DNA of 57,947 nucleotides, counting the filler, from Sphacelaria rigidula (Eukaryota): NCBI GenBank assembly GCA_964200075.2. It is 5 parts of 5 records of this genome, joined end to end, with 100 filler letters (N's around TTAATTAATTAA, not from the genome) between each part and the next. Parts side by side here need not be neighbours in the genome. Positions count along the whole stretch, not along the records: positions 23,221 to 34,729 come from CAXNAA020004847.1; 4 more parts are not named here. The stretch is one strand, 5' to 3'. Below are positions 7,201-57,852 of this stretch, piece after piece. Positions within the stretch are counted from its first letter, which is position 1, and every line of letters starts with the position of its first letter. The notes under the pieces are model-generated. The model was not told the DNA's origin and did not search any database. It was given only the letters and a program-made list of their open reading frames with translations. A program made the position numbers and the translations under genes.

Positions 7201-9489
7201 CCGTCGCCTATTCCCCCGCTGCAAACGCTTCATGTTTGCTCGGCTCTCTAGCGGAAGATCAACTACGCGAGTTTCTCGCCAGCTACTATCACCGCGGTTG
7301 GGCCCGCGAACAAAACGCGGAACCTTTATGTCGCGCAGCCATCCAGTATTTACAGCTTGACTGCCCAGTCCCTTTTCCAACCGCCATTCTGGCCGCGGTT
7401 GGCACACTGCCACCCCCAGATATCTCTGACGTATACGAACTCATGCGTAAAGGCACCATTTTCACTACGGATGAAGGCATCCAACTACTCGTGCGTCACC
7501 CCACGCCTTTGACGGGCGCACTTTCCGTGTCAACCACGGAACGCCACGCACGACTACTCAATGACGAACCAACGCGCATATGTGTCCAATTATTAATGCG
7601 CCCCTAGGCCATGAAAGGCTGCCACACGGACTTGACATGTCACCTTGGCGTCACTCGCACCTTAGCGCTCATGGGACGCTTTCACTGGTGGGTTGGCATG
7701 GAAAATTTCCACCCGCTTCTGGATTCGGCGATGCTTTAAATGCCAAGCTCGCAAAACTTCACTACAAACAGTACGTTGTCGCATCATCTCTATGGGACTC
7801 CCCAACACTCCGGGCCACCTTGTGTCCTTTGACTACTTTGGCCCTCTACCGACCACAGGTCGCGGCAATACCTACATCTTACTCTTCACTGACCGCTTCA
7901 GCCGCCACGCGTCCATGTACGCGGTAACCGCTGCAGAGTCCACTGCCGTCGGAACGGCCGATATATTGGTCCACGATTACATTAAGCACTACGGTTGCCC
8001 GAAACGACCTCCGTTCGACAATGGTCAGCACGTTTGCTCAGATCTCTTTGATGAGCTTTACAAGCTCCTGGGCATCCGCAAAATTGCCACGAGCGCCTAC
8101 CACCCTAATGGTAACGGTGGTACCGAAAATGTTAATCACACCATGGCTCGGATGCTCTCTATGGTCGTCAATGACCGCCAGAATGACTGGCACCTACACC
8201 TCTTGCACATCATGTTGTCCTACAACAACTCGGTTGACGCCGCTACAGGCCTTTTCCCCGAACGAACTCCATCTTGGACGTTACCCTCGGCTGCCCATTA
8301 ACGTGTTTGAGCGACACACGTTCGATGGCCACCAAGGATTGGATCAGGATCAAATATCCTACTACGAGCTAGCGTATTCACGACAACGCAAAGCGTTTAC
8401 CCTCGTGCGCGAACAACACTCTATCAACGCCTCGCGCCTTGAGAGATCTAACACTGCTCTCTACAAGCTCATGCACAAACGCCCCAACTGGAAAGTTGGT
8501 GATTGGGTTAAGATCTACAACAGTTTGTCGACCATCCGCCAAGGCACCAGCAAGGCAGCTAACAAAACAATTTTCAAGGCAAAATTTTCCCTCAATCAGA
8601 CAGGACCATTCAAGATCCTGACAGCCGGACCATCGCCATCATCACCTGATGATAAGCCCGTTGGTGACAAACTGCTCTATCTCGACCTGCCTCGCGACCT
8701 CCTGGGCAAGGACACCAAACCCCGCGTCTCCGTGCACAGATGCAAACGCTGCAGGAACCCGCATGATACTAGCGACATGCTCACGTACCTGCCTGCCGGA
8801 CTCACTCAGTACGTTGTCAACAGCTACTCGACCAAGTCCCACCTTATCATGTTACAACCGACGACGTAACGGAACAGCCCCTCCGATTGACCGTGTCTAC
8901 CATGTCCGGCCACCATATCACTCGTGGTAGAGGTGGCAAAATTGCTGTCATGTATAAGATCCACTTACAAGGTATTCGGAGAGCGTCTTGGGAACGCGAA
9001 TCCGACCTTTAATTGCACCGCCGTGCAATCCTCCTGTACTGGACGCAATCCCAAGATCAGAATCTTGCTCACAACAAGAAATATCGCAACATGCGTCGTG
9101 GCGCAGCAGCCCGCGGACTTCACCGCGATCAAGGACTACGCTTTGTCGCCGATGGCTACGAACTTGTACTCACCAAGACTTGTAAGGCGAAGTTCTTCAC
9201 AAACCAGCGAATACTACCCACGGGCAGCTACCTTTGGTTCAAAGGCAGCGATAACCTCTGGTGGTTGGGTCAGACCCACTGCGCTGCCCTGGTTTCTGCC
9301 GACACGTACATCGTGCGCTTCATTGATGACCCTGAACCCATCCAGCTCACGCTTCGGCCAGCACGACACCCCACCAGCCCATCTGCCCCACGCGGATCCT
9401 GGTGCCTTCAGCGGTTCAAATCAAGAGGAGTTCGCCGCGGTATCCAGCGCAACATCAACCACACCCACGACTTCCACGCATCGCTTTGA
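4300..9489 (+). pseudogene. Retrotransposon pol polyprotein pseudogene (aspartic protease, RT, RNase H, integrase with GPF motif, chromo-like and PWWP/Tudor-like tail)
   Basis: Integrase zinc finger (CHTDLTCHLG..CFKC) across a frameshift, DDE core (FDYFGPLP, FTDRFSR, DNG, GGTE), TGPFKIL. Many stops and frameshifts. RT Asp changed (FSTFGL), YxDD missing, RNase H Asp changed (LHTKAS). Confidence 0.9.
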
Positions 9490-10085
9490 ACCACGCTTCT
9501 TCACTGCAACCTTTCTTCCCTTCTTTAGTATTTTACCCTCCCTTCTTCGCTAGGACCCGGCTCTACGACGTCCACACCAGGACTACTTACATCGGACGAC
9601 GATCGGAGACTACTAGGCGCCACCGACCATCTACGACTACTGGAGCTCTAGTACTCTCCTTGGCGCTCGATCTCGTTGGATCAGCGATTTCAGATTTTGA
9701 TTCCCCTGCTTCCGATCAACATGCGTTGGTCGCTACTGATCTTGCCGTTTTGTTTTGTTTTTCTTTGGAACCCTCCAGGTGAAAGCTCTGCTTCCTGTTG
9801 TACCTCCCTGGTTTTCCCCTTCGTTTTGCTAGGACGCTGAAGCAATTTGTGCTTCTTCGTTGACCGCTAGCACGCAGAAGCAGTTTGTGCTCCTGCGTTT
9901 CGAAGCAGTTTTTTCTGCTCCTCGAAGCAGTATATGCTTCACTTATTTTGAGGTGTGGGAGTGTGGGTACGGGAGTGTTTCCTTAGGCGTGCCTTATTAG
10001 CGCTCATGACTTTACGGGTAAAGAAAAATCTTACTTTTCGCTGCTTTTGAGGATAGATCCTCGCAGCTGTAGTAAAGATTCGTCT

Positions 10086-10800: not shown

Positions 10801-11439
10801 CGAGCCGTGTCATGCTGAGGAACATGCATATCTGGCAGCACCCGCCACGTCCCTCCCTCGAACTGCCCTTCCTCTAGACTGCAGCTGAGGGGCCGCGTGC
10901 TCCTGCCGCTTCGTCGCCGACCTCCACCGCCACGCTCGAGCGGTGACCGTGCCCGAGACTCGCCTCTGCTTCACGATGAGCACCGTTTGTCGCCGCCGTG
11001 TTCGCAGCATGCGATACCACGACTGTGACCATCGGTCATCTCAGAAAAAAAGCATAAGCAAGGGGAGCAGGGCAGGCGTAAAAGCGTGGATGGAGAGAGA
11101 TGGAAGACAAGAAGGCGAAACATAAGAAACCTGAATCGTGTAAAATAGTTCATGAATCGAACAGAATTGCCTAAGCCATGTATCGCGTCCAGTTCAGCTT
11201 TTTCTGGGGCGGGCAAAGATGCATTGAAGATGTTGCTGCAGTAGCTCGATCCTTCTTATACTGTTATTTTATCCCGTACAACAATACATTCAGTATACCA
11301 TTTATCTCCCGATGTTGGACTCCAATAATACAACGATCGAGTGGATGACTCGACTCTCAGTTCCATATGCTTGTATAGGTCGGGTTCCGAGCTAAAGCTC
11401 AATATGTTTGAGGAGGGTCCCGTGAATCCTTACCACGTA

Positions 11440-11511: not shown

Positions 11512-11611
11512 NNNNNNNNNNNNNNNNNNNNNNNNNNNNNNNNNNNNNNNNNNNNTTAATTAATTAANNNNNNNNNNNNNNNNNNNNNNNNNNNNNNNNN
11601 NNNNNNNNNNN
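11512..11611. other. Artificial scaffold-join spacer
   Basis: 44 N + TTAATTAATTAA (stops in all six frames) + 44 N. Confidence 0.97.
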
Positions 11612-17300: not shown

Positions 17301-20300
17301 CTGAGGCAGGACATGATGCCATGATTCTTTTGTACCCTAGTCCAATCACAGCGGTATTTGATCTTGTCTAAAATGAGCATCACGGCGAAGTGCACCTGTG
17401 GTCAAAACAGGACGACAAATTATCCTCTTTTTTTCACTCTAGATCAATTTTCAGTGTATTTGATCTGATGAGAACAGAGCATTAGGTACACTGAGGTGCA
17501 CGCACATAGTCAATGTAATCGTCTGATCTGTGGTGATTTGTTCTCGTCTCACAGCACCGTCTGTGTGTATATCAAGACCATTCTCACGTGCATGTACGCC
17601 TTTTCATTATCGCGCAAGAAGTGCTGAGTCACGACTTTGGTGCTGTAATGGTCCGACTGTCGCCACGAGGGTGGAGAGACCGAGGGTTCGTTTCCCGATG
17701 CGTTTTTTTTTCTTCGTAGTATCTGATTTCCACGGTGGGAAGTGTGAAAACGTGAGTAAATAGAGTAGTCGACGGAGTTTGTTTGACGTGAGTTGACGCG
17801 GTGCGGGAGTGCTGACCCAATCCGCAAGATCAAAATGAAAGGCGTGTACCGGAGAGAGATGGCTTAATCCCTTGAGACTGTTAGACCACGGACTCGTCCC
17901 GAGGAAGGGTAGGGGTTTAAAGTGCGACGAAAAAATAATAAATAAAATAAAATGTGCGCCCGTGTCGTCCACTGCGTCTCGTAGGTGATATCCATTCTCA
18001 TGTCCCAGAAAGAGTCCGGATTTAAACCCGGGCCGGTGCTAAACGCGCTAAGGTCAGCGGCTGTGATGGCCTTGCCCCCAAAGGCAATGAGTGCTGACGA
18101 GATGGATGAAGGAGAGGATGGAGCCGACGGTGCCGAAGAGGTGAGACGGAATTGTTTTTGTTTTTTTTGCCTGGAATATTGTGAGTTCGTCGCTTGTTTC
18201 AACTATTGCATTCGTGCTATGATACCTTGATGTCTCTATGGCTTAAATTTGATTGATGTATTATTGACTGGTTTACTGAATTATTGATGGATAATTTTTA
18301 GCGATTTGGTGATCCGATTGATTCATGGATTGATTCATGGATTGATTCATGGATTGATTCATTGGTTCGATTCATTGATCGATGGACTGACTACTTGATT
18401 GATGGATTAATTCATTGAAAAGATAAATTGATTGATTGGTTGGTCAATTTATCGATGGATTGATTAATTGCTCAATTTTTCGGTTGGTCGATGGATCGAT
18501 TGAATGATCGCCTGCTTGATTGATGGGTTCATTGATTCCTTGATTCCTTAATTCCTTGACTTATTGGTTCATTCATTGATTAATCCTCAGACAGCGACCC
18601 CCCTGCAGGTGAACTGATTTGGACTACGCCACATTTGGGATTCAGAACTGCTCTTTTCTCGATACCCAAAACGCCTTTTTCATGAATAAGTTATTCGGAC
18701 CCGAGTAGTCTATGGTTGCTTTCCCATGACCAAAATGAGTCGTGGGGGGTAGACAGCGAATTAGTCCAATGTAGTGTCCACCCGAACCGGAAGAACGTGC
18801 CCATCTTGACGACCGTGATTGGTCAGAATGGGCATCCCGCGCCTCCCGGGTCTCGTGCGCGGCTCATAATTTTCCGCGGGAAACTTCCAAACACACACGG
18901 TTGACTTGGGGAGCTTTGTGGCTCTTCTTCGGACAGACCCCCCCCCCCCCCCCCGCTGCTCCGCGCCCTCGCCCGCCCAACCGACACCTTCGACCGCGCN
19001 NNNNNNNNNACAAAACACCACCATGTAGGAACGAGTGGGGGTGCTTCCACTCCTTTTCGTGCCTCCCCCCCCCCCCCCCCCCCCATTTCAATGGTCTTAT
19101 GACTATGGCATGCATGATCATGAGTAAACCCCCTCTTGAAAACACCACATCCCCCGGCCACTGTAAACCCCCGAATGTCTCCGGACTGTCAACCTGTGAC
19201 ACTGTTCCGAGTCGACACTCGCTGTCTCAGGGTTAAAGGACGAATTGATTGATCGACTGACTGGGAGATTGATGGGTTGATTGATGGATTGGTTGACTGG
19301 GAGATTGATTGTTCGATTGTTCGGTTGTCCGATCGATTCATTGATCGATTCATTGACGGATTGATGCCGATTGATTTATGAATATTGATTGTTCAATTGA
19401 TCGATTCATTGATACCGTTTAATTGATTCATTGGTCGTCTGACTGACTTACTGATTGGCAGAGTGACTGGTCGATTGATATATCGTGCTTCAAGTGATCC
19501 CCAAGAGATCTCGCTGTGGTCACGAGATCGACGTACCCCAACCATGGTAGGAAACACGGAGTAATTACTTGCTGAAGGAAAGTTACCTTAGCATGAAGGC
19601 GAGAAAAAGAGAGGTGTTCAGCAGCTAAAACGAAGTAAACTGAGAGAAACGAAAGACAAACAAAACAGAAGTGAAAATATAGGAAAGAAAGCAGAGAAAA
19701 GGAGAAGCTCGTTTTTCGGAGGAGGGAGCGAGTACGCCTTCAACATGGCTGCAGAAAAGTGAACCGAGTTTTTCTTCGTCGATGGTTTTGTCCCCAACTC
19801 ATCCGTCACGGTGGTCGTTTTTTGTCTCTCCTGGTGCGTTGCCTCGCCCATCGTGCCGGCCGCTTGTGTTAACTGTTTTGTTGGCGGGTTGTCTCGTCTC
19901 AACTCCTCTTTTTATTTTATGACATCCGTGCTGTTCTCTCGCCTCGGCTGTTTTGTCGGGCAATTTTCTCCATGTAGTTAGTGGGTAGTGTTCGTCGCAA
20001 CGGTGTCAGCATCTGTCTCGCCCTTTGTGTCGACCGTTTATCTCAGCTGCCCAGTCGGTGACTAGCTTTTATCCCAAGACGTGTCAAGTCATGCGTATCG
20101 GTTGTTGCACACCTCCGGATAGATGGTGAGGGAGCTCATCTATCATGTATAGCGCCTTCAAAACATGTACAGATGAGCTACGCTCCTATTGGTGTAGCTG
20201 GGGAAATTTGTGTGGCTCATGTAGCTCACGATAGCTCATGCTAGGGACGTATGAGCTAGCTCGTGTAGCTCCCCGTAGCTCACTCGGAGCAAACATGTGC

Positions 20301-21611: not shown

Positions 21612-21905
21612 GTAAATAAAAAACCAAGCATACACATTGGGGGAGGAAGGGGGAGTTCAAAGATAGTTGTTTCTACCGTACTTTGTGGTGTGCTGTGGCG
21701 CTGTGGCATGTTTGTTTTTTCTTAGCAAGCAAGTTCATCATTTTTCATTTTATTTTTATTTTCTTGTTTATTTTTATCCTGCCTCCCCCCCCCCCCCACC
21801 ACCCCTTCTTTCTTTTTTCTTTTTTTGTTGTTTTGNNNNNNNNNNTTCTTTTTCTCTTTGTTTGGTTTGGGGGGGTGGGGTTTTTTTTTTTTTTTTTTCA
21901 ACAAT

Positions 21906-23120: not shown

Positions 23121-23220
23121 NNNNNNNNNNNNNNNNNNNNNNNNNNNNNNNNNNNNNNNNNNNNTTAATTAATTAANNNNNNNNNNNNNNNNNNNNNNNN
23201 NNNNNNNNNNNNNNNNNNNN
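23121..23220. other. Artificial scaffold-join spacer
   Basis: 44 N + TTAATTAATTAA + 44 N. Confidence 0.97.
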
Positions 23221-24089
23221 CTCCCGAGCCTATTGGACGAACAAATGAACTTTCGATGGCAACTTCAACCTCACCCAAATGTTGGACCTCAAAAATGGAT
23301 CCAGGCTGTTACATGTCACTGTACCCACTATAGCCGTCATCAGACAGCAGGGTATTGAAAAACTAAAATCCCACGCACCGTGGGTATCCACCGTATCAAT
23401 GCACACCGACCCATCATCGACTTCCCCTGCTGCAGCTGTGACTGTGAAACTGCATTACTCTCATGTTCTCATGACATTCGTTGCATACCCGCTGTTTTTG
23501 TGCTCCCAAAGCGACGAGAACGCAAAGAATATATTGGTGAAAAGATACGCCGCCAGGAACAGGCTTTTGTGGTCCAGGTTCCTGTTTGAAGGTTTCCACG
23601 ATCTTGAAAAGGCGTGTGCATTTCGGGATCGACCACCTGTGAGAAAGAGCTGGTTTGGGCAACTTTCGGTGGCCAGAACACGCGCCACAGGTGTCAGATG
23701 ACACCCAAACCTGAACGATAATGTACCGCTGCTCCTTCTTCGTGCGCTGCGAAAGGAAGCACAGGATGGAACGCCTTGCTGCCAGCAAAAACTCGGCAAA
23801 AGTGGTGAAAAAAGTGAAATGATACATGTACACATATGTATATAAGGATCTCTACTGTCTATGGCAGCTGACCGCACCCGCCAACGCTTCGGCAATTAAC
23901 CAGAGAACACTCGGCTGGGTGCCCGCCCCCCCCCCAGCACTCAAAAACTCATTTTTTTCAAATTTGGGGCCCATGTGTCCAGAATGTTGTTTTCGCTGCC
24001 CCCTCATTCTATACCAAAGTTTCGCAGTATAGTTGCATTCCTTCACCTACTGGTGGCTATCGACAAGTACAACGCGCCATGCAAAGTTG

Positions 24090-24480
24090 GATTCCCATTA
24101 CGGACTTGTGGGCTGTGAGTGGGAAACCACTTCTGGAAAATCCAGGCGATCCTTGGCATACCGAACGACCGCACCCTTTTCCAATTTGTTGAAATTCTTG
24201 CTCTTTGGCCCCTTGGAGGCATTCCCAGTAGCGGACATGCCTCGACAGAAGATGAGAAGGCGATTGATTGGAGGGTCTGAGTGAGGATGGTGATTCCGAC
24301 GTACTTCTGCTAGGGCGAGATAAATATTTTCGGCGGGAATCTTGCAAAACCTACGGTTTGGGGTGAACCGGTCCAAAGCGGCGAATCCGAAGGAAAATAC
24401 TTTGGAAAAACAAAAAATAAGAAGGCTGGAGTTAGACCGCGCTCTCTCTCCACCTTGCTCATATTTCCTGACAGAGGGAA
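24090..24480 (-). mobile_element. 5' fragment of a related Tc1/mariner element
   Basis: Minus strand begins TA-TTCCCTCTGTCAGGAAATATGAGCAAGGT, similar to the 22442 TIR, and encodes the homologous MSATGNASKGPKSKNFNKLEKGAVVRY. Confidence 0.55.
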
Positions 24481-24759
24481 TATAAATGAATCCGGAAACC
24501 TTATACTGTCCGGTTTATCAGTGTGCGATCATTCAAAGCCAGCGTATCATCGCACTGTGTGTCATGTCGTTGACGTGAGTGACACACAGTCGCATATTGT
24601 GCCCATTGTCGTCTTGATTTCTCGCGCCCAGTCATTAACAGAGTGAGATGGACTCGAACCCTCAACTCCGCTCTAGTCGGTTATATGATGTACCACTTGG
24701 ACCACTGTGGCGAGGTGACATCGTGATATCCTCCAAGATTCCGCAAATAGAATACGGTG

Positions 24760-27705
24760 CACCCGTGGACAGATATAACCCTGTGGGGCGCACTGTGCAG
24801 GGTCCGTACAGCGTCCTCCGCAGTCTTTGTGAAAAATCCTGACAGTGAAAACCCAAATAACAACGTTTTCGTGAGATTGAGAGTAGAGCGCCGATTGAAA
24901 GTGGCTTTGATCATTCGCTTTAACTTGGCTATTTTTCCATCCTCTGTGTGCTTTTCTTTATCTCATCAAACGTGTGTGCTTACAGCTACACGTCGATATC
25001 AAGGGCCTCAGTGGCCAGCTCTTACAGAAAACGCATTGACCCTCGTGGAGGGGCATTTCGAAACTGAAACGATTTGTTCACTAATTGACCACTTTTCACT
25101 CTCAATCGTATCCTCTACTCTCAATCCCACGAAACCACTGTTAAATCTGTACCCCTCGTAGCATTGTGATAGGGTTTTCCTCAGGGTTGAATTTGCAGCC
25201 CTGTGTAGGCACGTCGGCAAAGCTCTGCACAGTCATGTGGTAGTGTTTTGGTAAAAACCGTGAAAGTTCTGCAAAATCTAGCAACCCTGTGGAGAGGCCC
25301 TCTCAATTTTGAAAAACATATTTATTTATTTTCGAAAATTCCAAATATTTTGGTACAAAATCTGTAAATTCATATTTTTTTAATAGCCTGTCCTGCTGTC
25401 CGAGATAAATTCCGTTTTGCCCGATTTTCAAATCGGGCAAAAAGGAATTTATCTTGGACAGCGGCACAAGCTATTCATAACATATCCTTTTCTCGCCCGA
25501 TTTATTCGGGTAAAAAAAGGATTTATTTCGAGCAGCAAAAGAACCTATTAAAAAAAAATCTATTTCGAACAGCTTTTTCTGCTGCACAAATTCCATGCAC
25601 ACTGGCAGATTTGGAACAGCAGAAGAAGCTCAGAATAAATCTTCATTTTGACCTCCAATTCATCCGGAATTTCGGGAAGAAGAGTTTTATTGCGAACAGC
25701 GTCAGCTGAGCATATCCCGCATACCGCATCGTTATCCGCGTATGGGATCTGACACGCAAAATTGTTTTTTCAAGTAATTCATCCTTTTGCCCCTCAGTCC
25801 ATGTATACATGGGCTAAACGATGAATAACTCTCAACAGCTTTTGCTGCATAGAGATCTCACACACTGGTTACGTGTGTATGTCCACACGCCTGTGCTTGA
25901 AGCTAACCAGACATGATAAGGATGCTGGCTGTGCGGTGTATACCTCGCATATCAACGCACATAGTTTATAAAGACCCCGTGTTCTAGTGTCTACCAACAC
26001 AAACATGTTTAGAAAAAGTCAATTGATCTATCGCACCTTTATTGGGACCCCAGCAATATTGTGTAGTATAATAGACGATCACCAGAAGATATATATATCA
26101 CCGGCTGTTCACAGATCGAACGCAATGTAAACCCCACAACCCTGCAGCAAAGAGCACGGGTTGGGCACAGGGTATAGATACACACTGCCGTGGGTGGGTA
26201 TGATGTATTTCTTGTTGGTGGAAACTTGAGCACCTTCTTTCATGATCGCGACATCGCGCGGGGACGACAGCACGCGGGCGGTATGGGGTAGGGAACAACC
26301 GGCCGGCTATTGCGTACACACTCACCATGTGCATTGACCGCAACAACATAGTCCAGGCCGTACAATGCTGCACGTCGTACGAGTCCTCGCCACGTCGCAC
26401 TGTAGGTGGAGAACATATATATATACTATATATATATACACACACATTGTCCTGCGCTGTCTGTACTGTACTTTCCCCCTTCCCTTTCACGCCCTACTTA
26501 CTATGCTGCAGCAGCTGTGCGCATGCTGTGAGTAGGCGCGTGTAACTGGGGTTCCTGACGGTATATAACACCCCCATAAATGAAAATAAGCTGCAGGCAT
26601 CTACATTGTATGTATAGCCAGCCAGACGAAGCACATATTCCGCGCTAATTTTGGAGTACATGGCACCGCACGTATAAGCACACTATAGCGAATGTACAGT
26701 CCCGTACAGTTTATTATTGTGGATATATACCCCCATCGTAAAGTATTGTATCAATCACGATCAGATGTTTCGTGTTTTCATCAATCTGAAAACTATTTCG
26801 TGTACTGCCGAAGGTTGGTAGACACGGGACTACCGGTATTTCACATATATGCATTGATAACCGAGGTATAGTCCGCTCTGTCAACATCACCTCAGCTGCA
26901 ACTAAAGCTTGCGTTCAGTATGTGGGACTTGAACAGCAGAAGCCGCTCGCAAACAAGCTCTTTCTTTGTCTAATTTCAGACATTTGCGGGAAAGATGGGG
27001 ATTTATTTCGAACAGCTTCTGGTGTACAAACTGCATCTGCTATAGTGTACATGGGATTGTCTGTACAGCTTCTGCTCTTCGAAACGAATCCTTTTTGCCC
27101 TATTCCAAATTTGGAATTAGGATTTATTTCGAACAGCAGAGGCTGTCAAAATTCCAGATTTCCATTGCACTTGTGCCTTTAAAAAATATTCCGGGGGATT
27201 AACATGGACCTTCGAGGGCCTGAAAGTTGAAAATCCCCAAAATTGAGAAGTACAAAAAATACACCCCATCCAGCCAGAACGACTACCATGTGTTGTTGCT
27301 CAGTGGATAACTGATCATGTCCATGAAGATGAAGATGAAGATGAACTGGTGGGTTCGACTCCCGTCCAATTTTGCCCAGTCCTTTTTTTCCGCCTGTACC
27401 TTGCCCGCAGCTGCGTGTGAAGGGTAGTGTGTGTGCGTAAACACGCTGCACAGCGTTGCCAGCAGCGATGAACTCTTAATGGGGCGACGGAACCCTGTGA
27501 TTCGTCCTGTAAGATGCACAAAACACTGTACGGTAGACGTCCCGCCAGAAACCTGCACAGTATTCATTACCACTGTAGAAAAACCCTGTGAAGCGTCCTG
27601 TGCTACGCTCGAAAACACTCTACTGTGAAATCCCCGCCGGAAAAACTGCGTAGGGTATGTAAACGCTGTAGACCCCCTCCACAGGGTCCTATCTGTTCAC
27701 GTATG
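24760..27705. mobile_element. Composite non-autonomous DNA element with ACCCTGTG subterminal repeats and nested insertions
   Basis: Left end CACCCGTGGACAGATATAACCCTGTGG versus reverse complement of right end CATACGTGAACAGATAGGACCCTGTGG. CCCTGTG repeats near both ends. Confidence 0.5.
24859..25142. mobile_element. MITE family AACAACGTTTTCGTGAGATTGAGAGTAGAG, copy 1
   Basis: About 30-bp TIR. Interior is the reverse complement of the copies at 48510 and 50527. Confidence 0.75.
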
Positions 27706-28101
27706 CGTCCAAAAAGGTAGCACAAAGCCTCATGTACAATCCGGTATACCCATATTCGGAAGCAAAAAATCCGGCATAGACTTCTGTGGTGTTATATGAA
27801 ATATGCTGCAAGCGCTGATTGGATTCATCCCACGACGAAGCGCTCTAATTCAAGCCCAGCCTAGCCTGACTGGATCAAGTATTCTCCAACAAGCACCAGT
27901 CAATAAAAAGATTAGGAACTCCTGTTTCTTGTGTTCTTACTCTCAATCAAGCGCAAGATTCTCAATCTGGCAAAACCCCTGGTATGTCAGGACCATGTCG
28001 AGATAGAGAACTGCTTCGCATTGCCGAAGAGGAGACACTGTGACGACCAATGATCGCTTCGGACCGGTGACACCATACGTGGGCACACACCAACACACTC
28101 A

Positions 28102-31100
28102 CTACCCGGGCCATCTGAGCAACGAGGACGGTACAACGACTGGTGTCATCTTCCGTATATCGGACGTCGGAGGAGAAGCACCAGGTACTCCTAGCTCCAA
28201 CTTCACGTTCGAATCCTCCTCCACCTCTTCCAACGCCATACCATCAAATGTGCACAAGCATCTCGTCACCGTTGCCGGCGAACCACAACCCCATCCAGTA
28301 CCCCCACAAGCAGCGCTGGTGAATCCACTATCATCTTTGCTCCCCCAACCGCTTGAAGGAGAAGCCTGCTTCTGGAACATCCTCGTCCCATCGCCACCGT
28401 GTATAGGAGACGAGACTGTCAGCTCTACCTTCATTCCCGCTCTTGCTCCTGCCCGCAAAGGCGCCTCATCATCAGCCCTCGAATGTGGGTGTCTCGGGAG
28501 CAAAAGTGGACGTCCCGAGAGCGACGGTGTTCTCTCCTCCTGTATGGAACCGGCGCAGAAACTACGGCGAGCATCTTTGCCGTCGTTTGCACCAGAACCC
28601 GACAGTGTTGCGCGCTTGCGCTTAACTCCTCGTACATTAGCAACGCTTCCTCTACCACCCTCCGTCGCGCTACGGTCGGGGATGCCTTTACCTGTGTTGA
28701 GCTTCGTGGTGTCGGAAACGACAGCGGTGTCGTGTGCACTAGCATGCTGTTGGCAACGTGTTCCCTTGTCAAGAGGTCGTTTCGAGCACTCCTTGTTGCC
28801 GCACATCGTTCTCGCCACATTCACCATTCTCGCCTTGACATGCTTGGAACAGAATTCCGCCTCCTTGCTTCCGGCTACACCATCAGACGGCTGCATGGGA
28901 CAGCCCTCGTACCCGCACATCTTCTTCACATTCACCATTCCCGTCCTGGCATGCTTGAAACAGAACTCCGTCTTCGTACTTCCCGCAACACCATACGACG
29001 CCTGCGAGGGGCAGCCCTCGTACCCGCACCTCTTGTTCCTCACATTCACCATTCCCGCCCTGGCATGCTTGGAACATAACTCCGCCTTCGTGCTTCCCGC
29101 CGCACCATACGACGACTGCGAGGGGCAGCCCCTGTAGCCGCACGTCTTGTTCCTCACATTCACCATTCCCGCCCTGGCATGCTTGAAACAGAACGCCGCC
29201 TTCGTGCTCCCCGCAACACCATACGACGCCTGCGAGGGGCAGCCCTCGTAGTCGCATTTCTTCCTCTGCACATTCACCATTCCCGTCCTGGCATGCTTGA
29301 AACAGAACTCCGTCTTCGTGCTTCCCGCTATACCATACGACGCCTGCGTGGGACAGCCCTCGTACCCGCACCTCTTCTTCCTCACATTCACCATTCCCGC
29401 CCTAGCATGCTTGGAACATAACTCCGCCTTCGTGCTTCCCGCCGCACCATACGACGGATGCGCGGAGCAGCCCTCGTGCCCGCACCTCTTGTTCCTCAAA
29501 TTCACCATTCCCGCCCTGGCATGTTTGGAACAGAACTCCGTCTTCGTGCTCCCCGCCGCACCATACGACGGACGCGAGGAGCAGCCCTTGTAGCTGCACT
29601 TTTTCTTCTTCACATCCACCATTCCCGCCCTGGCATGCTTGAAACAGAGCTCCGCCTTCTTGCTTCCCGCAACACCATACGATGCCTGCGTGGGACAGCC
29701 CTCGTACCCGCACCTCTTGTCCTTCACATTGACCATTCCCGCCCTGGCATGCTTGGAGCAAAACCCCGCTTTCGTGCTTCCGGCTACACCATACGACGGC
29801 TGCGTGGGACAGCCCTCGTACCCGCACATCTTCTTCTTCACGTTCACCATTCCCGCCCTGGCATGCTTGGCGCAAACTTCGGCCTTCGTGCTTCCGACTA
29901 CACCATATGACGACCGCGTGGGACAGCCCTCGTACCCGCACCTCTTGTTCCTCACATTCACCATTCCCGCCCTGGCATGCTTGAAACAGAGCTCCGCCTT
30001 CTTGCTTCCCGCAACACCATACGATGCCTGCGTGGGACAGCCCTCGTATCCGCACCTCTTGTTCCTCACATTTACCATTCCTGCCCTGGCATGCTTGGAA
30101 CATAACTCCGCCTTCGTGCTTCCCGCCGCACCATACGACGGACGCGCGGAGCAGCCCTCGTATCCGCACCTCTTGTTTCTCACATTTACCATTCCTGCCC
30201 TGGCATGCTTGGAACAGAACTCCGCCTTCGTGCTTCCCGCAACACCATACGACGACTGCGAGGGACAGCCCTTGTAGCCGCACTTTTTCTCCTTCACATT
30301 CATCATTCCCGCCCTGGCATGCTTGGAACATAACTCCGCCTTCGTGCTTCCGGCTACACCATACGACGGACGCGCGGAGCAGCCCTCGTACCCGCACCTC
30401 TTGTCCCTCACATTCACCATTCCCGCCCTGGCATGCTTGGAACATAACTCCGCCTTCATGCCCCCCGCCACACCATACGACGGATGCGCGGAGCAGCCCT
30501 CATACCCGCACGTCTTGTCCTTCACGTTCACCATTCCCGCCCTGGCATGTTTGGAGCAAACCTCCGCCTTCTTGCCTCCCGCCACACCGTACGATGCAAG
30601 CGTAGAGCAGCCCTCGTGCCCGCAAGTCTTGTCCTTTACATCCACCATTCCCACCCCGGCATGCTTGGAGCAAACCCCCGCTCTCTTGCTTCCCGCCACA
30701 ACATACGATGCAAGCGTGGAGCAGCCCTCGTACCCGCACATTTTGGTCTCCACATTCACCATTCCCGCCCTGGCATGCTTGGAGCACACCTCCGCCTTCT
30801 TGCTTCCCGCTACACCATGCGATGCAAGCGGGGAGCAGCCCTCGTACCCGCACATCTCTTTCACTTTCACAATTTCCGCCCTGGCATGCTGGGAGCAAAC
30901 CTCCGCCTTCTTGCTATCCGCTGTACCATACGATACAAGCGTGGGACAGCCCTCGTAGCCGCACATCGTTTTCACCACATTCATCATTCCCGCCCTGGCA
31001 TGCTTGGAACAGAAAGCTACCTTTGTGCTTCCGGCCATACTATACGTCGGCAGCGCGGAGCAGCCCTCGTACCCGCAGATCTTGTTCCTCGCATTCACCA

Positions 31101-31365
31101 CTCCCGCCCGGGCGTGCTTGTTGGTGTACCTTCTTCTCGCAATATCGCCCGTGAGCACCTTCGATGGCGTTCCTCCGAAAACGTACTGCTTCCAGTAGCA
31201 CAAAAACCCAGACAGCCGGAAATAGTTCGTGAGCCATGGGCCAAAGCAATTTGAAACGCTTTGCAAAGCAAATGCCTTTGTTATTGCTGCACATACTCTC
31301 AAGAACAGGCGTCTGCCTGCATTTACCTCAGGAGACGCTTCATTTAAGCTGACACCAACTTGCAA
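28102..31365 (-). CDS. EsV-1-7 cysteine-rich repeat protein (20 full tandem repeats plus partial ones, putative zinc-finger-like nuclear protein); true start unresolved
   Basis: Open frame of 1087 codons. Repeat consensus CGYEGCxxxxSYGVAGSxKAEFCSKHARAGMVNVxxKx matches the EsV-1-7 motif of phaeoviruses and brown algae (family of Ectocarpus IMMEDIATE UPRIGHT). C-terminal KRKR. No in-frame ATG before repeat 1, so an upstream exon is likely. Confidence 0.88.
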   Translation of the reverse strand: MQVGVSLNEASPEVNAGRRLFLRVCAAITKAFALQSVSNCFGPWLTNYFRLSGFLCYWKQYVFGGTPSKVLTGDIARRRYTNKHARAGVVNARNKICGYEGCSALPTYSMAGSTKVAFCSKHARAGMMNVVKTMCGYEGCPTLVSYGTADSKKAEVCSQHARAEIVKVKEMCGYEGCSPLASHGVAGSKKAEVCSKHARAGMVNVETKMCGYEGCSTLASYVVAGSKRAGVCSKHAGVGMVDVKDKTCGHEGCSTLASYGVAGGKKAEVCSKHARAGMVNVKDKTCGYEGCSAHPSYGVAGGMKAELCSKHARAGMVNVRDKRCGYEGCSARPSYGVAGSTKAELCSKHARAGMMNVKEKKCGYKGCPSQSSYGVAGSTKAEFCSKHARAGMVNVRNKRCGYEGCSARPSYGAAGSTKAELCSKHARAGMVNVRNKRCGYEGCPTQASYGVAGSKKAELCFKHARAGMVNVRNKRCGYEGCPTRSSYGVVGSTKAEVCAKHARAGMVNVKKKMCGYEGCPTQPSYGVAGSTKAGFCSKHARAGMVNVKDKRCGYEGCPTQASYGVAGSKKAELCFKHARAGMVDVKKKKCSYKGCSSRPSYGAAGSTKTEFCSKHARAGMVNLRNKRCGHEGCSAHPSYGAAGSTKAELCSKHARAGMVNVRKKRCGYEGCPTQASYGIAGSTKTEFCFKHARTGMVNVQRKKCDYEGCPSQASYGVAGSTKAAFCFKHARAGMVNVRNKTCGYRGCPSQSSYGAAGSTKAELCSKHARAGMVNVRNKRCGYEGCPSQASYGVAGSTKTEFCFKHARTGMVNVKKMCGYEGCPMQPSDGVAGSKEAEFCSKHVKARMVNVARTMCGNKECSKRPLDKGTRCQQHASAHDTAVVSDTTKLNTGKGIPDRSATEGGRGSVANVRGVKRKRATLSGSGANDGKDARRSFCAGSIQEERTPSLSGRPLLLPRHPHSRADDEAPLRAGARAGMKVELTVSSPIHGGDGTRMFQKQASPSSGWGSKDDSGFTSAACGGTGWGCGSPATVTRCLCTFDGMALEEVEEDSNVKLELGVPGASPPTSDIRKMTPVVVPSSLLRWPG
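28804..31077 (-). repeat. Coding minisatellite, 114-bp unit x20 (two units of 111 bp)
   Basis: 2274 nt between the first Cys of repeat 1 and of the shortened repeat 21. The block CCATTCCCGCCCTGGCATGCTTG is nearly invariant on the + strand. Confidence 0.95.
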
Positions 31366-33719
31366 GATGATTCCAGCACACGGGACGCCCTCGACGATAT
31401 TGCAGTAGGAACTGGAAGCGAACCAAGCACTAGTGTGTTACAAATCGAAGGACCATCATGCTACAGGGCGCATGTCAAGCACTACAGCGATGCTAAAGGG
31501 GGTTGCATCAAAGGGGAATGACCGATGAATGTTTTTCAAAGTAACAAGCGTAAGGCTTACGGGTCGCACACGAAGAGTCAGCGAGAAATGTTGTGCACGA
31601 TCAAAAGCCAGAAATAATAATCGACAGAGCGACCGCATAACATGAAAAGCTTTTCTTGAGAAATCGAGAATTTGTTCCTCCATGAGTTGGAGGCGAAAAA
31701 CATGATCCCTCTTCTACTAAAACAGCGGTAAATCATGAACCTTAAATTAATGTCCCACAAGGACGTTTTCCGTACCTTCACGATTGTAAATGTCAAATTT
31801 GAACGTCCAGCGCTCGACATTGATAAAAGAATGCCAGATTCGCAGCCCAAGTCGCTCGAGAATTGGCACAGAATTTGGAAGGCCATTCACCAACCCAGTT
31901 TTGATACTTGTGCCTCGAAGGTTTGTGTGGAGAATCGCTACGGCATGACAACAGAAAAGAACTGGGACAGGGAATTTTTATTTGATGCATGAGGTAAGGA
32001 CACTTTAGTGTAGTATAGACTGTTTCGGTCGGTTCGTGTTTGTTTGAGGTCGTATTTTTCATTTCTGGACGTTTGACAAAGGGTTGACCCCCCAACAGGG
32101 AATATCGCCATTACACGTCTTGGACACTTTGCAGTGCCCTACCAAAAGAGTTCAGCCCACTTTTCATGTTCGCTTGGCTCCGAGATGTGGAGAATGGCTT
32201 CTGAAAAACAAACACGGCTTGAGAACAAATGCGGTGCCTGCAGGTATTTTGACGTGGAGTTGAGAGTACCGATCGTTTGCCTGTGCTCCAGGGAATTCAT
32301 CACCAAACGGCCTCTGTGAAGCTCCGAGCACTGTCCCAGTTTTACAACTCCTCGAAGATTTGTGTTTTCGACTGAATATTGAAGGACATACCGTCGTGGC
32401 GGAGGTCAGAATCGAAACAGAAACTCAACAGAGGGTTCTGTAGACTGTAGCCACCTTTGTTACCTAGGTTAGGCAATGAATGTAGGTGGAACAAAGTGTA
32501 GTAGGTGTTTACCGCTGGTTGATGGATCGCGGGTGTGCATTGCAATGATCCGAGCCAGCTACTTCCTACGCGGCATCCTTCGTTGTACGAGAATTGGAGC
32601 AGTGTCCCGAGATCGTCGGTAAACGTCGTGCGGTCAGGACAGCACGATAGATCGACACAGCAACTCCAACACACACTATCGGAATACGGTACGTGTAACG
32701 ACACTTAGATCTCTTGAAACGTTTCGTCAGATACGCGGCGTGAAAAGGAACTCCATGCTTTTCGAGCGTTTGTCCTGAAACGGCATGATTTCTGATAATA
32801 TATCAGATTGATTTCATGAGAAGTTGTGTACATTAAGGCCCTCGATGATATCACCGGAATGGTACGAACGAGCGCATCCTGCTGTGCTGTGCTGTGCTGT
32901 GTCATGGCTGTTGCTAGTCTACATGAGCTACAGTAGTGAGCCTACACACACGTCGTCACAAAATATCGTGTTTGATAGGGTAGCATGTGCGGTCGACGCG
33001 TGTATACTGCGCTGACCATGAATTCGAAGACAACGGTGAAGTTTGGTGCAAGTGGCGAATCCTTCACATGTATGTACATAGTGCCCTGTGAACCACCCTG
33101 ACAAGCGTTTGCGACTCGTGTGTGCGTTTTCGCGGCGTCGATGAGCTGCACAGAAGGTGAGGATGACTCTGTACAACTTGTATTGCGTAGCGGTAAGTCT
33201 GCGAGAGTTCTCCGTGGAAATCATCGCAGAAGAAGGTAGGGGGAGGGCACAATGGCATGAGAGGAGAATTCACGAGAAGTAACGGGATGTGTCTTTGCTT
33301 TGGAACTATCGGCCCATATTTGCTTTGATGCAAATTTTTCAGACATCCCCACGTGTGGTAAAACCTCATCCCGAGCATAGGATATACACCCTGTGGGGGT
33401 CCCAGCAGAGTACGGCGCATCGCAGGTGCGGCATGACAGCACTATGCTGGGGTCCTGCACCATAACCCTACAGTGCAATCAGCTACTTCTATTGGTATAA
33501 CGGATCAGACTTGTGGCGGGTAATTTGGACTTCACCGTGGTTTATATCGCACTGCACAAAGGAATGCAATGTAAAGCCATCGACCGACTGGACAGGGATA
33601 TTCCATATATATTTTGAAATACTTGCTAGTTGTCGTGGCGTGTAATATTGATCAAAGCCACCCGTGCAGATATTGCCATCCTACTCACACTTGGTCGTGA
33701 GGGGAAAACATGTGAGTAC

Positions 33720-34668
33720 ATCCGCCAATTCCACGATGGCATGCAGGCTTGCGTACGAATGGACGATGTGGAGTTCTCTGAGTAGTTCAAGATAACTCAG
33801 GGACTGCGGCGAAGATGTGTGCTGTCTCCGCTGCTGTTCAATGTTTCGTTCGCTGCGGCGCTCGAGATAGTTCTCGCGATTTAGTGGAGACGACATCATC
33901 CTCAAGGGCATTGTATATCTCGACAACGAGATGGTGAGCGGGACAGAAACGACTCTGGAACGCGTACGGAGAGCGGTGTGGGGAATGCTATGTGCATATG
34001 GCGCGGCCGTCGTAACGATGTTCCCCGACGGCTTGGCGAGAATGATGACGGCTGTAGTCGACGTGTTTGATGCATTCGGACTGACGGTGTCGGACAAGAA
34101 GAGAGAGACTCTGCTAATATGAGTACCAAAAATCGTCACACAAGGGGGAGCCACCAACACCATCTCACCTCCCACTGGTCATCGAAGCAGCGGGCCAGAG
34201 GTACGCACAAACCACGAAGTTGCGATGCTTGGGGGTGGGCTCATTACCGGAGATGGCGAGCTCACATGCGAGATCAACAACCGGATAAAAGCCGTGTGGG
34301 CGTGCATCAGAAAGTGTTGCCCGGGAGCCTTTTGACCGACCGAAATCACCGTGGAGACTCGAGGTCCGACTGCTCAAGATGAAGGCGATGGAGACCCTAC
34401 TGTAAGGATGCATGACGTGGGCCCTGCGCCGCGAGCAATACCGGTTGCTGAGGACAGTATACTACCGGCTTCTCTCCTGCGAATGATCGGGTACCGCCGC
34501 TTTCGTGGTACATACCAACAGCTATCGTACGCCCAGGTCCTCAAGAAGAGCGGATGATAACGTGCTGGAGTCATCGTCCAGCAACGGCGACTGCTGTTCG
34601 CGAGAGCCCTGGCTAGACAACTGAACGGACAACTACGTAAGCGTCTGGCATTCGGAAACCTCGTAGGG
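33720..34668 (+). mobile_element. Degenerate non-LTR retrotransposon (RTE-like LINE) reverse transcriptase fragment
   Basis: Across frameshifts reads IRQFHDGMQACV..QGLR..CVLSPLLFN..VWGMLCAYG (decayed LYADD)..FGLTVSDKK..EINNRI..METLL.GCMTW..QRRLLFA..KRLAFG. Confidence 0.85.
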
Positions 34669-34729
34669 GGGGGGGGGGTGTACTCATGATCCTGCATGCT
34701 ATAGTCACAAGACCATTGGCCTCGCATCC
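34665..34729 (+). repeat. G-tract-associated short dispersed repeat, subfamily A
   Basis: G-run + TGTACTCATGATCCTGCATGCTATAGTCACAAGACCATTGGCCTCGCATCC, abutting the LINE at a Gly-codon G-run. Confidence 0.8.
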
Positions 34730-34829
34730 NNNNNNNNNNNNNNNNNNNNNNNNNNNNNNNNNNNNNNNNNNNNTTAATTAATTAANNNNNNNNNNNNNNN
34801 NNNNNNNNNNNNNNNNNNNNNNNNNNNNN
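34730..34829. other. Artificial scaffold-join spacer
   Basis: 44 N + TTAATTAATTAA + 44 N. Confidence 0.97.
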
Positions 34830-45655: not shown

Positions 45656-45712
45656 TGCGGGGAGCCATGGAAGGATAAATCATATGGTCATTNNNNNNNN
45701 NNGGGGGAGGGA

Positions 45713-46338: not shown

Positions 46339-46438
46339 NNNNNNNNNNNNNNNNNNNNNNNNNNNNNNNNNNNNNNNNNNNNTTAATTAATTAANNNNNN
46401 NNNNNNNNNNNNNNNNNNNNNNNNNNNNNNNNNNNNNN
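46339..46438. other. Artificial scaffold-join spacer
   Basis: 44 N + TTAATTAATTAA + 44 N. Confidence 0.97.
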
Positions 46439-49359: not shown

Positions 49360-52300
49360 TCAAGGATCAAACTGCCTCATCTTTGCCTCGATGACGGAGC
49401 GCATGACGTCAACGCTCCCATCCAGCAACCCCAGGATATCGCTTCCCCGTACCTCCACCCCCTGTGCGCCCCCTTGCCAGAAATCCACTGCGGCGGTCCG
49501 GACCTCCGTATTGACGTTGAACTTACACACCCCCAGCTCGATCGACCGCCGTACTTGACCACTCGGCAAGCCGGAGGCCCCATGCAATGCGAGCAGAGTA
49601 CCCTGTTTTTCGCTGGCACCCCTCCCAGCTTGGGGGTCTAGTGCTCCCTGTGATGAACGTGATGAGGCGTCCCGTATTCGCTCTAGACGTGGAAGGTCCA
49701 GTTTTGGGTTAGGATTGGCGTATTTGCCGTGCACGTTCCCAACTGTAACGGCAAGCACATCCGCTCGTGTCCGTTCCAGAAACTCCGGTACCTGATTGCG
49801 GGCATGGTGGCAAGTGGTGGTCACCGGGACAGCACGACCTCGGTCAGAAAACTGCCTTGGAACGTCGTGCTGCAGTGTAATGCGCCTCGTATTGTGTATG
49901 TGTGCTGTGGCAATGAGGGCTCGGGTTATTAGCGTAGCCGTGTCGCTGGTGAGGGTGTACACCGCCGTTGATTAGTTCATACATTCATCGCGGTCCCGCA
50001 TTCATTCATCCGCTACGACCTCAGGCATGGTGACAAATGCATATGCACAACAAAGGTAAGATAAGAGTTACTGTCTAATTATCACCAACCTTGGATGAAA
50101 CGACCAAACCAGTCCAGGGTGTCAATAACGAAGCAGAATAAGGCTACCACCCCTGGGTTAGGGAGAAGTAGTCTCGTGAGCCACGGACTTGGCCGTGGGA
50201 CGTGCCTAGACAGCTCGTTCTTGTGTGGAGAGAGACAACAGAGTCGAAAGGATAAGCGGCCTCGAGGAGATGTCCGGAGACGTCCCCTCGAGTTGGAGTA
50301 TGACGACATGAATGGACATTGACCCGAGAGGACGGACTATTCTTCCTGGGGAAACATTCCCGGAAGTAAGACGGAGACATCAATATTCCTGGAACGGAGG
50401 GGAGGGATCCATAGATATTCTCGGAACTGCGTATGCCGAGGGAATTATGAATGATATTTTGAAATAATATATATTTTTTTTTTCATTAAGTCAATAATTG
50501 AAAACTGTTCGAGGATGGAATGGGAGCAACAACGTTTTCGTGAGATTGAGAGTAGAGGATACGAATGAGAGTGAAAAGCGGTCAATCAGTGAATGAGTCG
50601 TTTCAGTTCCGAAATGCCTCTCTACGAGGCCTGATATGCTTTCTGTAGCAGCTTGCCACTGAGGCCCTTGGTAGCCCCGAGTAGGATATCGACGTGTAGC
50701 TAGCTGTGAGCACACGCTAGTAGTGAAGGAGGCAAAGAAAAGCACATGCGGAACGAAAAATTGGCTAGGTTAAAGCGAATTACCAGGGCCACTCTCAATC
50801 AGTACTCTACTCTCAATCTCACGAAAATGTTGTTGAACATTGTTGGGATGGTTGGAATGAGAAATTAATTTTATTTTTGGGCAAGGGGGAAACAGTATAG
50901 ATCGCAAAATGATTCAATAACTCGGCAATTTTAGCAATCAGGCTACGAGCTGGGCCAGCCAAGAACAGGCGCGAATCTCGCTCAGGCGACGCACGGCGCA
51001 AAATTAGGAGTTGGACCCTGAAATTTTGACAGCAGCTTTTCATGATCGAAATGCAGAAGATCACGGCTCCAGCAATATTAAAAGACAAGAAAATAAAAAG
51101 TTATGGGCATTTGAAATTTCAGCAAAAACAAGATAATGCCATAAATCCAGGGAAAAAAGGAGAGTCAGCAGCTGGACTCGTGAAGTATCAGTTTCTTGGG
51201 TGCAGTCCTGAATTTTCAGCTCAAGACTCGTCGGATTGGGCCGTGCGTTCAACATTTTCCGTGACGCTGCTGCACCCCTATAAGTCAAGGGATGGGAGAC
51301 TCCAATTATGGAGGTCATGAGTTCGATCCCGACATATTTTCTTCTTTTTTTTCGTCCGTCGTTAATATCATACATTATGCAGTACATTTTTCCCATTTTT
51401 TTTCTGCATTCAGCGGCGGTGCCGTGTGTCACCAGGTTGGTCTACACTTCACAGTGATATGCTTACATCGGGTTCATTCGGGAAACTGGGGAAGCTGTGG
51501 CGTGAGCAAGTTTTAGCAGCTTTTAAGCTGGCCCAGCTCGTACTTCTGATGTATCAGAAGTAAAAATTGTTGAAAAGTGCATTCATGACCCTTCTCCGTC
51601 GTTTTTCCCTCGAAAAGAGGGCTAGGCGGCTGTTGGCACCTTGGAATGACTTGCTCTACTCGCTGAGACGGTTCCAGAGCACCCTTGCGTTTCCCGTCGG
51701 TCATGGTTTTGCTTTTGGCCAAACTTGCATTTTCAATAACAAACGGTCAAGTTACCGAAAAAATGACAAATAATGACAGTTTCCCCCCTGTATTTAGATA
51801 ACTTGACCGTTTGTTATTGAAAATGCAAGTTTGGCCAAAAACAAAACCATGACCTACGGGAAACGCAAAGGTGCTCTGGAACCGTCTCAGCGAGTAGAGC
51901 AGGTCATCCCAAGGTATCAACAGCCGCTCAGCTCTCTTTTCGGGGGAAAAACGACGGAGGAGGGCCAAAAATGCGCTTTTCAACAAGTTTTGGTTTTTGA
52001 TACAGAAGAACTAGCCTCAGACTAGCGGCCTGCGCAAGTGTCTCGACAGAAAAGGAATGGACAGACTAGCGACCCTTCGCAGAAGATGAGCGTACGTATA
52101 TATTTTGTCGACCCCAGGGATATCCGTTATCGTCCGCGATCGAGCGGCCTGTGTACTTGGTGAACGGTTTTCCCCATCAAAGGGGACCTGAAGGCACAGA
52201 CAGGGCTGCAGGTACATCCCACAAGGAGTGGACGTAGTCATACGTTCGTATCCCTGGGTGCTGCCAGCTTGCAACGCTGAAGATGCCAAGGGGATCGCAT

Positions 52301-57483: not shown

Positions 57484-57852
57484 CTGTTGAAGGGGGCAGT
57501 AAGGGGGGGTTGAGGTCAAAATTGAGCCGCATATGGCAGGGTGAACGGAGATATGTGAGATGTGGGTTCTGCCGCACGTGTCCCTGTTGCCTGTCATTAT
57601 TCCTGTTGCGGTACGTAACCGCAGGATTATCTCCTTGGGCGCCAGACAAATGCCACAAATGATCTTCAGGTGGGGATCACTAGAGGGATGCGCAACAAAA
57701 ACTTTGGTACGCATTAGACATGGGCTTGTGAATTGTCGACGGTGGAGTAACCAGCATGATGTGCTTCGCGTACCACATGATCGCCTGCGGTGCACTCGCT
57801 ACCCCGAGTCCTCCAATGCCTCAGCCGGCACTATAATAGAGAGCTCAGCGTT

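Follow-up and report, generated by a model that had tools for sequence, protein, structure and literature searches.

A twenty-unit EsV-1-7 zinc-repeat array encoded in the genome of the brown alga Sphacelaria rigidula

A long EsV-1-7 array on the minus strand

The window analysed here, a stretch of 57,947 nucleotides made up of five joined parts from the genome of the brown alga Sphacelaria rigidula (assembly GCA_964200075.2), contains in the part at positions 23221-34729 a gene that encodes 20 in-frame tandem units of the form C-x4-C-x16-C-x2-H, located on the minus strand (31077 to 28840) by a six-frame motif scan of the whole window. The product matches the Pfam family EsV_1_7_cys (PF19114) in 20 stretches (total score 911.2 bits, cut-off 25, E value 1.8e-282), and is a new, very long member of the known EsV-1-7 family. 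The number of units is the count in the assembled sequence. Eighteen of them are 114 nucleotides (38 residues) long and units 2 and 19 are 111 nucleotides (37 residues) long, with a unit-to-unit spacing of 38 residues in 17 steps and 37 in two; Tandem Repeats Finder places the array at 28816-31120 with a period of 114, 20.3 copies, 84% matches and 0% indels. The sole further match to the motif in the window, at 10998-11069, is an unrelated chance match. Higher-order repeats were considered and rejected because the near-identical pairs of units 10/13 and 16/19 do not lie within duplicated blocks; besides the period of 114, the repeat finder returned only weak entries for periods of 57 and 58.

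The array is uninterrupted within an open frame that extends over 28102-31365 as listed (1087 codons), or over 28102-31437 from stop to stop (1111 codons). An initial annotation of this DNA had described 20 intron-free tandem units, and the motif scan, the 20 Pfam stretches and the uninterrupted frame all bear out this description; the 20 four-residue strings and the basic linkers that it quoted read exactly as listed. Within each unit we number the putative metal ligands Cys1, Cys6, Cys23 and His26, and refer to positions 7-10, immediately after the second cysteine, as the tetrad. All 80 ligand residues of the 20 units are intact and, because the three cysteines and the histidine are invariant, each unit of 38 residues probably coordinates a single zinc ion. 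The array is strongly basic, with an isoelectric point of 9.50, 124 lysine and arginine residues against 48 aspartate and glutamate residues in 764 amino acids, and a net charge per unit that ranges from 0 to +7.

The other features of the gene are given in Table 1. The C-terminal tail contains the conserved motifs VRG.KRKRA and GMKVEL together with a near-terminal VKLELGV. Its KRKR cluster resembles a nuclear localisation signal, a function that we infer, and is conserved in related proteins: P0139 and P0153 have the same four residues, and P0206 has RKRNR. Upstream of unit 1 the frame contains no in-frame ATG, and therefore the start codon is probably located in an upstream exon. A contig from sequencing run X5 (depth 34.9), the kind of which was guessed as RNA, matches positions 31057-31186 exactly and then continues with 29 letters unlike the window. 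This break coincides with a CAG following a pyrimidine tract, which weakly suggests a splice acceptor and, further upstream, an exon that holds the start codon. Long pieces from the DNA runs X1 and X2 show no differences to the 5' flank. These comparisons with reads cover the non-repeat 5' flank, and the kinds of runs X7-X9 were, like that of X5, guessed.

Table 1. Features of the EsV-1-7 gene (positions along the window)
Feature	Position	Strand	Evidence
Predicted splice acceptor (AG preceded by a pyrimidine-rich tract)	31186..31187	-	weak hint
Coding segment before the array, with a Cys-less half unit at its end (..YTNKHARAGVVNARNKI)	31078..31185	-	frame translation, 5'-flank check
20 tandem EsV-1-7 units, each C-x4-C-x16-C-x2-H followed by ARAGMVNV and a basic linker of 3-4 residues	28804..31077	-	repeat finder, Pfam, motif scan
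Terminal shortened "cap" unit (21st) after unit 20, CGNKEC..C-QQ-H, C-x4-C-x10-C-x2-H	28744..28803	-	frame translation, paralogue comparison
Conserved C-terminal tail, about 210 residues, without Pfam family	28105..28743	-	sequence searches
KRKR basic cluster, frame residues 915-918	28612..28623	-	paralogue comparison
Stop codon of the frame	28102..28104	-	open frame
Recorded protein P0209, 430 amino acids, 100% identical	28102..29394	-	database match

The recorded protein P0209 starts at the methionine of the GMVNV motif in unit 15 and so includes no more than units 16-20 and the tail; the frame is open for 657 codons further upstream, and 15 of the 20 units are omitted. The models of the related proteins P0212, P0215 and P0217, and also those of P0139 and P0153, begin with MVNVV or MVDVV, which is this same conserved motif, and the gene models of the subfamily may thus be systematically shortened at their 5' ends. 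Such internal-methionine starts, in P0209 and probably in several of the related models, under-report the length of the array and would bias censuses of the family.

Variation among the units and selection

The residues of the tetrad are drawn from small sets: Ser or Pro at position 7, Ala, Thr, Ser, Pro or Met at position 8, Leu, His, Arg or Gln at position 9, and Pro, Ala, Ser or Val at position 10. Over the 20 units, the entropies at these four positions are 0.99, 1.96, 1.81 and 1.68 bits, and those at the linker positions 35, 36 and 38 are 1.97, 2.27 and 1.87 bits, while most scaffold positions have 0.92 bits or less. The proposal that variation is located in the tetrad and the linker agrees with these values and with the codon partitions described below, but is incomplete, as positions 14, 22, 18 and 24 also vary (1.52, 1.56, 1.19 and 1.08 bits) and at least 11 of the 38 positions exceed 1 bit. 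Nor is the scaffold fixed "even at silent sites", as had been stated: codons are identical in all 20 units at only three of the 38 positions (1, 5 and 26), and the proportion of synonymous differences is 0.27 in the scaffold and 0.22 in the tetrad.

Pairwise Nei-Gojobori estimates of the ratio of nonsynonymous to synonymous change (dN/dS) fall from 1.85 in the tetrad to 0.80 in the linker and 0.31 in the scaffold. Parsimony on the maximum likelihood tree of the units assigns 24-26 nonsynonymous and 3-4 synonymous changes to the tetrad (binomial p 0.02-0.03), an excess that is not significant when it is set against the synonymous rate of the whole array (Poisson p 0.08-0.17). In our own likelihood implementation of a GY94-type codon model, run on fixed trees, a dN/dS ratio (omega) was fitted to each of three partitions: scaffold (0.24-0.29), tetrad (1.39-1.41) and linker (0.93-1.00). 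The three partitions outperform a single omega with likelihood ratio statistics of 46.5-62.8 (p 8e-11 to 2e-14). With five partitions, the scaffold positions that are variable in the family as a whole are constrained here (omega 0.20) and the tetrad has an omega of 1.43. The concentration of change in the tetrad and linker is real, and the scaffold is under purifying selection. Nonsynonymous change is thus densest at the sites named in the initial annotation; the omega of the tetrad does not differ significantly from 1 (likelihood ratio test, p 0.20-0.23), and relaxed constraint is therefore enough to explain the tetrad.

When positions are fitted singly, position 9 has an omega of about 3.5 (likelihood ratio statistic 8.9, p 0.003) and position 36 of about 2.7 (p 0.004), p values that are uncorrected for the 38 positions and belong to positions picked after the data had been viewed; omega at positions 7, 8 and 10 does not differ from 1. 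Because of this post hoc choice, and because gene conversion among the units violates the single-tree assumption of the codon model, positive selection at the variable positions is only suggested. The strongest signal falls on position 9, the third residue of the tetrad, which had been singled out in the initial annotation on account of its switching residues.

One explanation for this pattern would be a modular reader: each unit would recognise one element of a linear DNA or RNA target, the residues that follow the second cysteine (position 9 in particular) and the linker would set the specificity, and diversifying selection would reshuffle the units in the manner of PRDM9 or TALE proteins, perhaps against viruses or transposons. 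The signals at positions 9 and 36 would fit such a reader, yet neither survives correction for 38 positions, and both depend on a single-tree model that gene conversion violates; the omega of 1.4 for the tetrad as a whole does not differ significantly from 1. Nor are the units nearly identical at the DNA level, as those of a PRDM9 minisatellite would be: between units, 2 to 23 of the 90 scaffold nucleotides differ (2-25%), the low extreme being units 10 and 13, which differ at just two. Comparisons with related genes and with the wider family, given below, also bear on both sides of this explanation, which we consider quite unlikely.

Related genes and growth of the array

The tail of the protein identifies a subfamily of close relatives. 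BLAST searches recovered P0139 (41.5% identity over 212 amino acids, E value 6e-31), P0153 (37%) and P0206 (34%), and nine further proteins carry the tail, eight of which are named products of Sphacelaria rigidula with 39-74% identity (P0210-P0218 series). All named tail relatives come from this species. A comparison with proteins of 597-1903 amino acids gave no tail relatives, a result that is misleading since shorter relatives exist, and none of 334 pattern matches found on searching metagenome contigs with the tail was confirmed. The Sphacelaria rigidula paralogues, with P0139, P0153 and P0206, share the homologous tail, the cap unit, which ends in CRQH or CQQH in the paralogues, and the KRKR-type and VKLELGV motifs. 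Their units are built on the same scaffold as those described here, CG.EGC..SYGVAGS.KAEFCSKHARAGMVNV, and have mostly Ser and Pro at positions 7 and 10, whereas the present array contains a derived class of units with P-[TS]-Q-[ASP].

The paralogues contain between 0 and 7 canonical units, as against 20 here, a large difference in copy number. In a tree of the units, these cluster by protein and not by position, only unit 4 of P0139 (P0139_u04) being nested among the units of this array, and because units cluster by gene the array grew within this gene's own lineage. Three classes of unit can be distinguished, namely L (units 2-5), S.[HR]P (units 1, 6, 7, 9, 14 and 15) and P.Q. (units 8, 10-13 and 16-20), and much of the diversity of the tetrad marks these three lineages. 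The starting point was probably a shorter array resembling those of the paralogues, which would have been lengthened through tandem duplication and unequal exchange, with the three classes as the outcome.

These relationships cut both ways for a modular reader. The wide variation in array length among paralogues is compatible with reshuffling, and position 9 is prominent in the subfamily: it is among the six most different positions in five of six paralogue arrays, shows 11 residue types in 52 subfamily units (led by Gln, Arg, Lys, Leu and His), and together with the linker sets apart six otherwise nearly identical units of P0218, which have Lys, Arg, His, Trp, Ala and Arg there. However, the tetrads of the present array do not vary independently, since tetrad types are inherited with the unit lineages. 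Positions 7, 8 and 10 carry small residues only, and five units have Leu at position 9.

The comparison with paralogues also bears on whether the array is a decaying or non-functional expansion, such as a pseudogene, or a repeat that was assembled wrongly, that lacks a start codon. The lack of an in-frame ATG upstream of unit 1 and the restriction of P0209 to the last five units could be read in this way, as could the finding that the best DNA run contains only 0.66 of the words sampled from 27000-33500. Against this, the frame is open over all 1111 codons between stops, scaffold omega is 0.17-0.29 across codon models, none of the 80 zinc-ligand residues has been lost, the tail is conserved with the paralogues, and the contig of the run guessed to be RNA ends exactly at the predicted acceptor. 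Since the frame is intact, the scaffold constrained (omega 0.24-0.29 with three partitions) and the tail conserved, we take this to be a real coding gene, and decay is very improbable.

The array within the EsV-1-7 family

The EsV-1-7 family is large, with 9189 representative proteins at E values of 0.001 or less and 2098 at 1e-30 or less. In most of 66 relatives, the units are spaced most often at 38 residues. Among 207 relatives in which units were counted by motif the maximum was 16, and the present array, with 20, is the longest of those counted. In 280 distinct units from the 66 relatives, positions 7, 9, 35, 36 and 38 are among the most variable, as are about 15 others, and the entropies of the array correlate with those of the family (Spearman rho 0.55, p 4e-4). 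Across 89 other arrays of at least six units each, position 9 has the highest mean relative difference within arrays (1.66), and ranks first for variability in 17 of them, which a modular reader would account for; it is followed by positions 36 (1.65), 11 (1.59) and 35 (1.56), so narrow a lead that there is no sharp peak resembling the repeat-variable diresidue (RVD) of TALE proteins.

Most relatives continue well beyond the repeats, 176 of the 207 having at least 150 amino acids after the last unit. In 40 aligned relatives (P0068-P0116) the C-terminal 150-200 residues form a common domain after the array, with the consensus ..RPDF..EVDExQH..RYNPD.. and near-invariant columns R444, D446, E459, D461, E462, Q464, H465, R476, R492, N494, P495 and D496. 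This consensus is absent from the tail of the gene described here. None of the 80 relatives scanned with Pfam matched a nuclease family in this domain at an E value of 1e-5 or less, the only trace being DUF2726 at 0.02 in one of eight, and a search of the PDB with a profile of the 40 relatives gave no match. In two other relatives, P0021 and P0024, the repeats are fused to HA domains.

No ligand or recognition code for EsV-1-7 is described in the literature that we surveyed, which was available in part and did not include the founding paper of the family, said to be that of Macaisne et al. 2017. In the available parts of two sources, the EsV-1-7 domain is called a possible novel zinc finger of which the function is not known (10.1101/2024.02.19.579948; PMC7457493). 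Similarly, as far as the accessible text goes, EsV-1-7 forms the largest orthogroup across brown-algal genomes, including IMMEDIATE UPRIGHT (IMM) (10.64898/2026.04.27.720984; 10.1101/2024.02.19.579948; PMC7457493), and the domain occurs at the N terminus of a Tc1/mariner transposase in Ectocarpus (PMC12477816).

Structure and remote relations

A model of three units predicted with AlphaFold2 from a 30-row alignment has a mean predicted local distance difference test score (pLDDT) of 85.4 and consists of short strands without helices; a model of a single unit reached only 51.2 and was not used. Pfam also gives a sub-threshold similarity to the first half of the plant SBP DNA-binding domain (PF03110): the protein as a whole scores 33.3 bits, and none of its stretches passes singly. 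When three-unit segments were scanned, 15 of 30 matched SBP at E values of 1 or less (best 6.6e-6, 26.0 bits against a cut-off of 27), covering profile positions 1-35 or 1-37 of 75, so that the complete domain is absent. The first zinc site of SBP has the ligand set Cys3His, as does the EsV-1-7 unit, and the Cys/His spacing of the two is presumably identical. The SBP domain is reported, in the part of the source available, to comprise a Zn1 site (Cys3His), a Zn2 site (Cys2HisCys) and a nuclear localisation signal, and to bind GTAC (PMC11061197). SBP chains are absent from the results of our PDB sequence and fold searches, and we regard the relation as a lead, not as membership of the SBP family. 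The same three-unit segments gave further sub-threshold matches to PF24906 (Zf_WRKY19; 10 of 30), to CxC6, the cysteine cluster of KDZ transposases (7 of 30), and to the zinc-binding domain of coronavirus nsp13 (7 of 30), all of which probably reflect shared Cys/His spacing rather than homology.

Probable function of the array

We consider it probable, at roughly 0.6, that this is a host nuclear gene of the brown alga whose product is a basic nuclear zinc-repeat protein that binds an extended polyanion, and that the array has grown in the gene's own lineage. The 20 units, the cap unit and the tail with its KRKR motif would all be encoded in one exon. The product would most likely be nuclear, and its extended polyanionic ligand would probably be nucleic acid, with the basic linkers and the exposed loop after Cys6 forming the contact surface. 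That loop and the linker between units would be free to change, with possible diversifying selection at positions 9 and 36. The leaning towards nucleic acid draws on indirect indications, namely the transposase fusion, the HA fusions and the conserved C-terminal domain of the 40 relatives.

Several results weigh against a polyanion-binding nuclear protein. In addition to the missing in-frame ATG, structural and sequence searches failed to connect the unit with a known fold. Foldseek searches of the PDB with the three-unit model gave no matches at E values of 0.001 or less (best 2.0), and the best hits of a wide VIA-align search were two RING domains with insignificant Z scores of 2.5 and 2.2, a second look giving nothing at 2 or above. 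Sequence searches of the PDB found nothing for the whole protein at E values of 1 or less, only 1q2h (1.6) for a three-unit profile, and noise at 3 and 6.5 for a one-unit profile; the ESM Atlas gave no usable match. Published fusion partners of EsV-1-7 are few, and further fusions among the relatives, to ELO, EF-hand, gag and reverse transcriptase domains, are possibly merged gene models. Finally, IMM, the sole EsV-1-7 member with a phenotype, is without known biochemical function in the part of the source available (PMC7457493).

Alternatively, the array could serve as a protein-protein interaction scaffold, as many small zinc modules do (RING, B-box, LIM), and take part in developmental regulation like IMM; the loop and the linker would then be unconstrained surface. 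An omega close to 1 at tetrad and linker fits such neutrality, and the only structural neighbours, all insignificant, are the RING domains mentioned above and tandem B-boxes found by Foldseek at the noise level (E values 2.6-5.6). As far as the accessible parts of the sources go, IMM is developmental with biochemistry that is not known (PMC7457493), and EsV-1-7 genes are over-represented in a co-expression module linked to development (10.64898/2026.04.27.720984). On the other hand, the strong net positive charge of the array, together with the HA fusions and the transposase fusion in the portion of the report at hand (PMC12477816), favours nucleic acid, a row of twenty near-equal units points to a ligand that is long and repetitive, and the structural matches do not rise above noise. 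An interaction scaffold is therefore possible but unlikely.

Binding of an extended polyanion by a basic nuclear repeat protein remains our preferred interpretation, and several features make the gene useful for examining it. The series of paralogues with a shared tail and very different numbers of units is natural material for repeat swaps, and a first study of binding would naturally begin by mutating position 9 and linker position 36, both of which are conspicuous in this array and its paralogues and, weakly, in the family as a whole. The broader proposition is that position 9 and the basic linker set ligand specificity and that long arrays such as this one would read a linear nucleic acid one unit at a time; in that case the expanded EsV-1-7 arrays of brown algae and giant viruses would amount to an unrecognised class of modular, evolvable readers of DNA or RNA, on a par with C2H2, TALE, PUF and PPR arrays. 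We consider this quite unlikely.

Sequence surroundings

EsV-1-7 genes tend to be clustered; a six-frame motif scan of the 58-kb window, with its joined parts, found no other EsV-1-7 gene. Two exons of a class II fructose-bisphosphate aldolase (PF01116) are located on the minus strand at 49360-49971 and 57091-57798 (E values 2.8e-24 and 1.5e-8) and, within the bounds set by joined parts, appear to represent an ordinary intron-bearing host gene neighbourhood. On the plus strand, a decayed Ty3/gypsy-type retroelement contains reverse transcriptase and RNase H sequences at 5422-6477 and an integrase core at 7666-8301. This element is broken into many consecutive frames, in a series of open frames that spans about 170-9780, and its region has a strongly negative GC skew, as has the array. 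Beyond this unrelated element, some 20 kb away, nothing in the window links the array to viruses or transposons, which argues against a modular reader directed at them. Pfam detected no protein families other than those named in the 27 frames of the window that were scanned, and an integrated giant virus was rejected as none of these 27 frames matched a viral family.

In the DNA runs X1 and X2, summed contig depth is very high at 32000-32250 and 34375-34729, reaching thousands to hundreds of thousands where neighbouring single-copy pieces have a depth of about 15-30, and many loose ends occur at 32133 and 34666. These stretches are probably dispersed repeats flanking the gene. The window also contains four paired runs of N (44 N, 12 bases, 44 N) at 11512-11611, 23121-23220, 34730-34829 and 46339-46438, and three runs of 10 N at 19000-19009, 21836-21845 and 45693-45702.

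Comparison with known systems

The analogy with the PRDM9 minisatellite and with TALE proteins rests on fixed-length tandem units, change at a few positions and copy number that varies between relatives. Fold and metal site differ from those systems, the predicted structure of the EsV-1-7 units being free of helices. PRDM9 combines KRAB, SSXRD and SET domains with C2H2 fingers, none of which is present here, where Pfam finds only EsV_1_7_cys and the weak SBP similarity and shows no features of TALE proteins either. TALE repeats are helical units of 33-35 residues in which the two-residue RVD is almost the sole variable site, in contrast to the strands and the many variable positions of the present units. 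The closest known system is the EsV-1-7 family itself, including IMMEDIATE UPRIGHT and gene 7 of the virus EsV-1, with which the array shares both the motif and the 38-residue period. IMM has five repeats according to the available part of a preprint, as compared with the 20 units and cap unit described here, and whereas IMM possesses a unique N-terminal domain, the Sphacelaria rigidula gene instead carries its own conserved tail.

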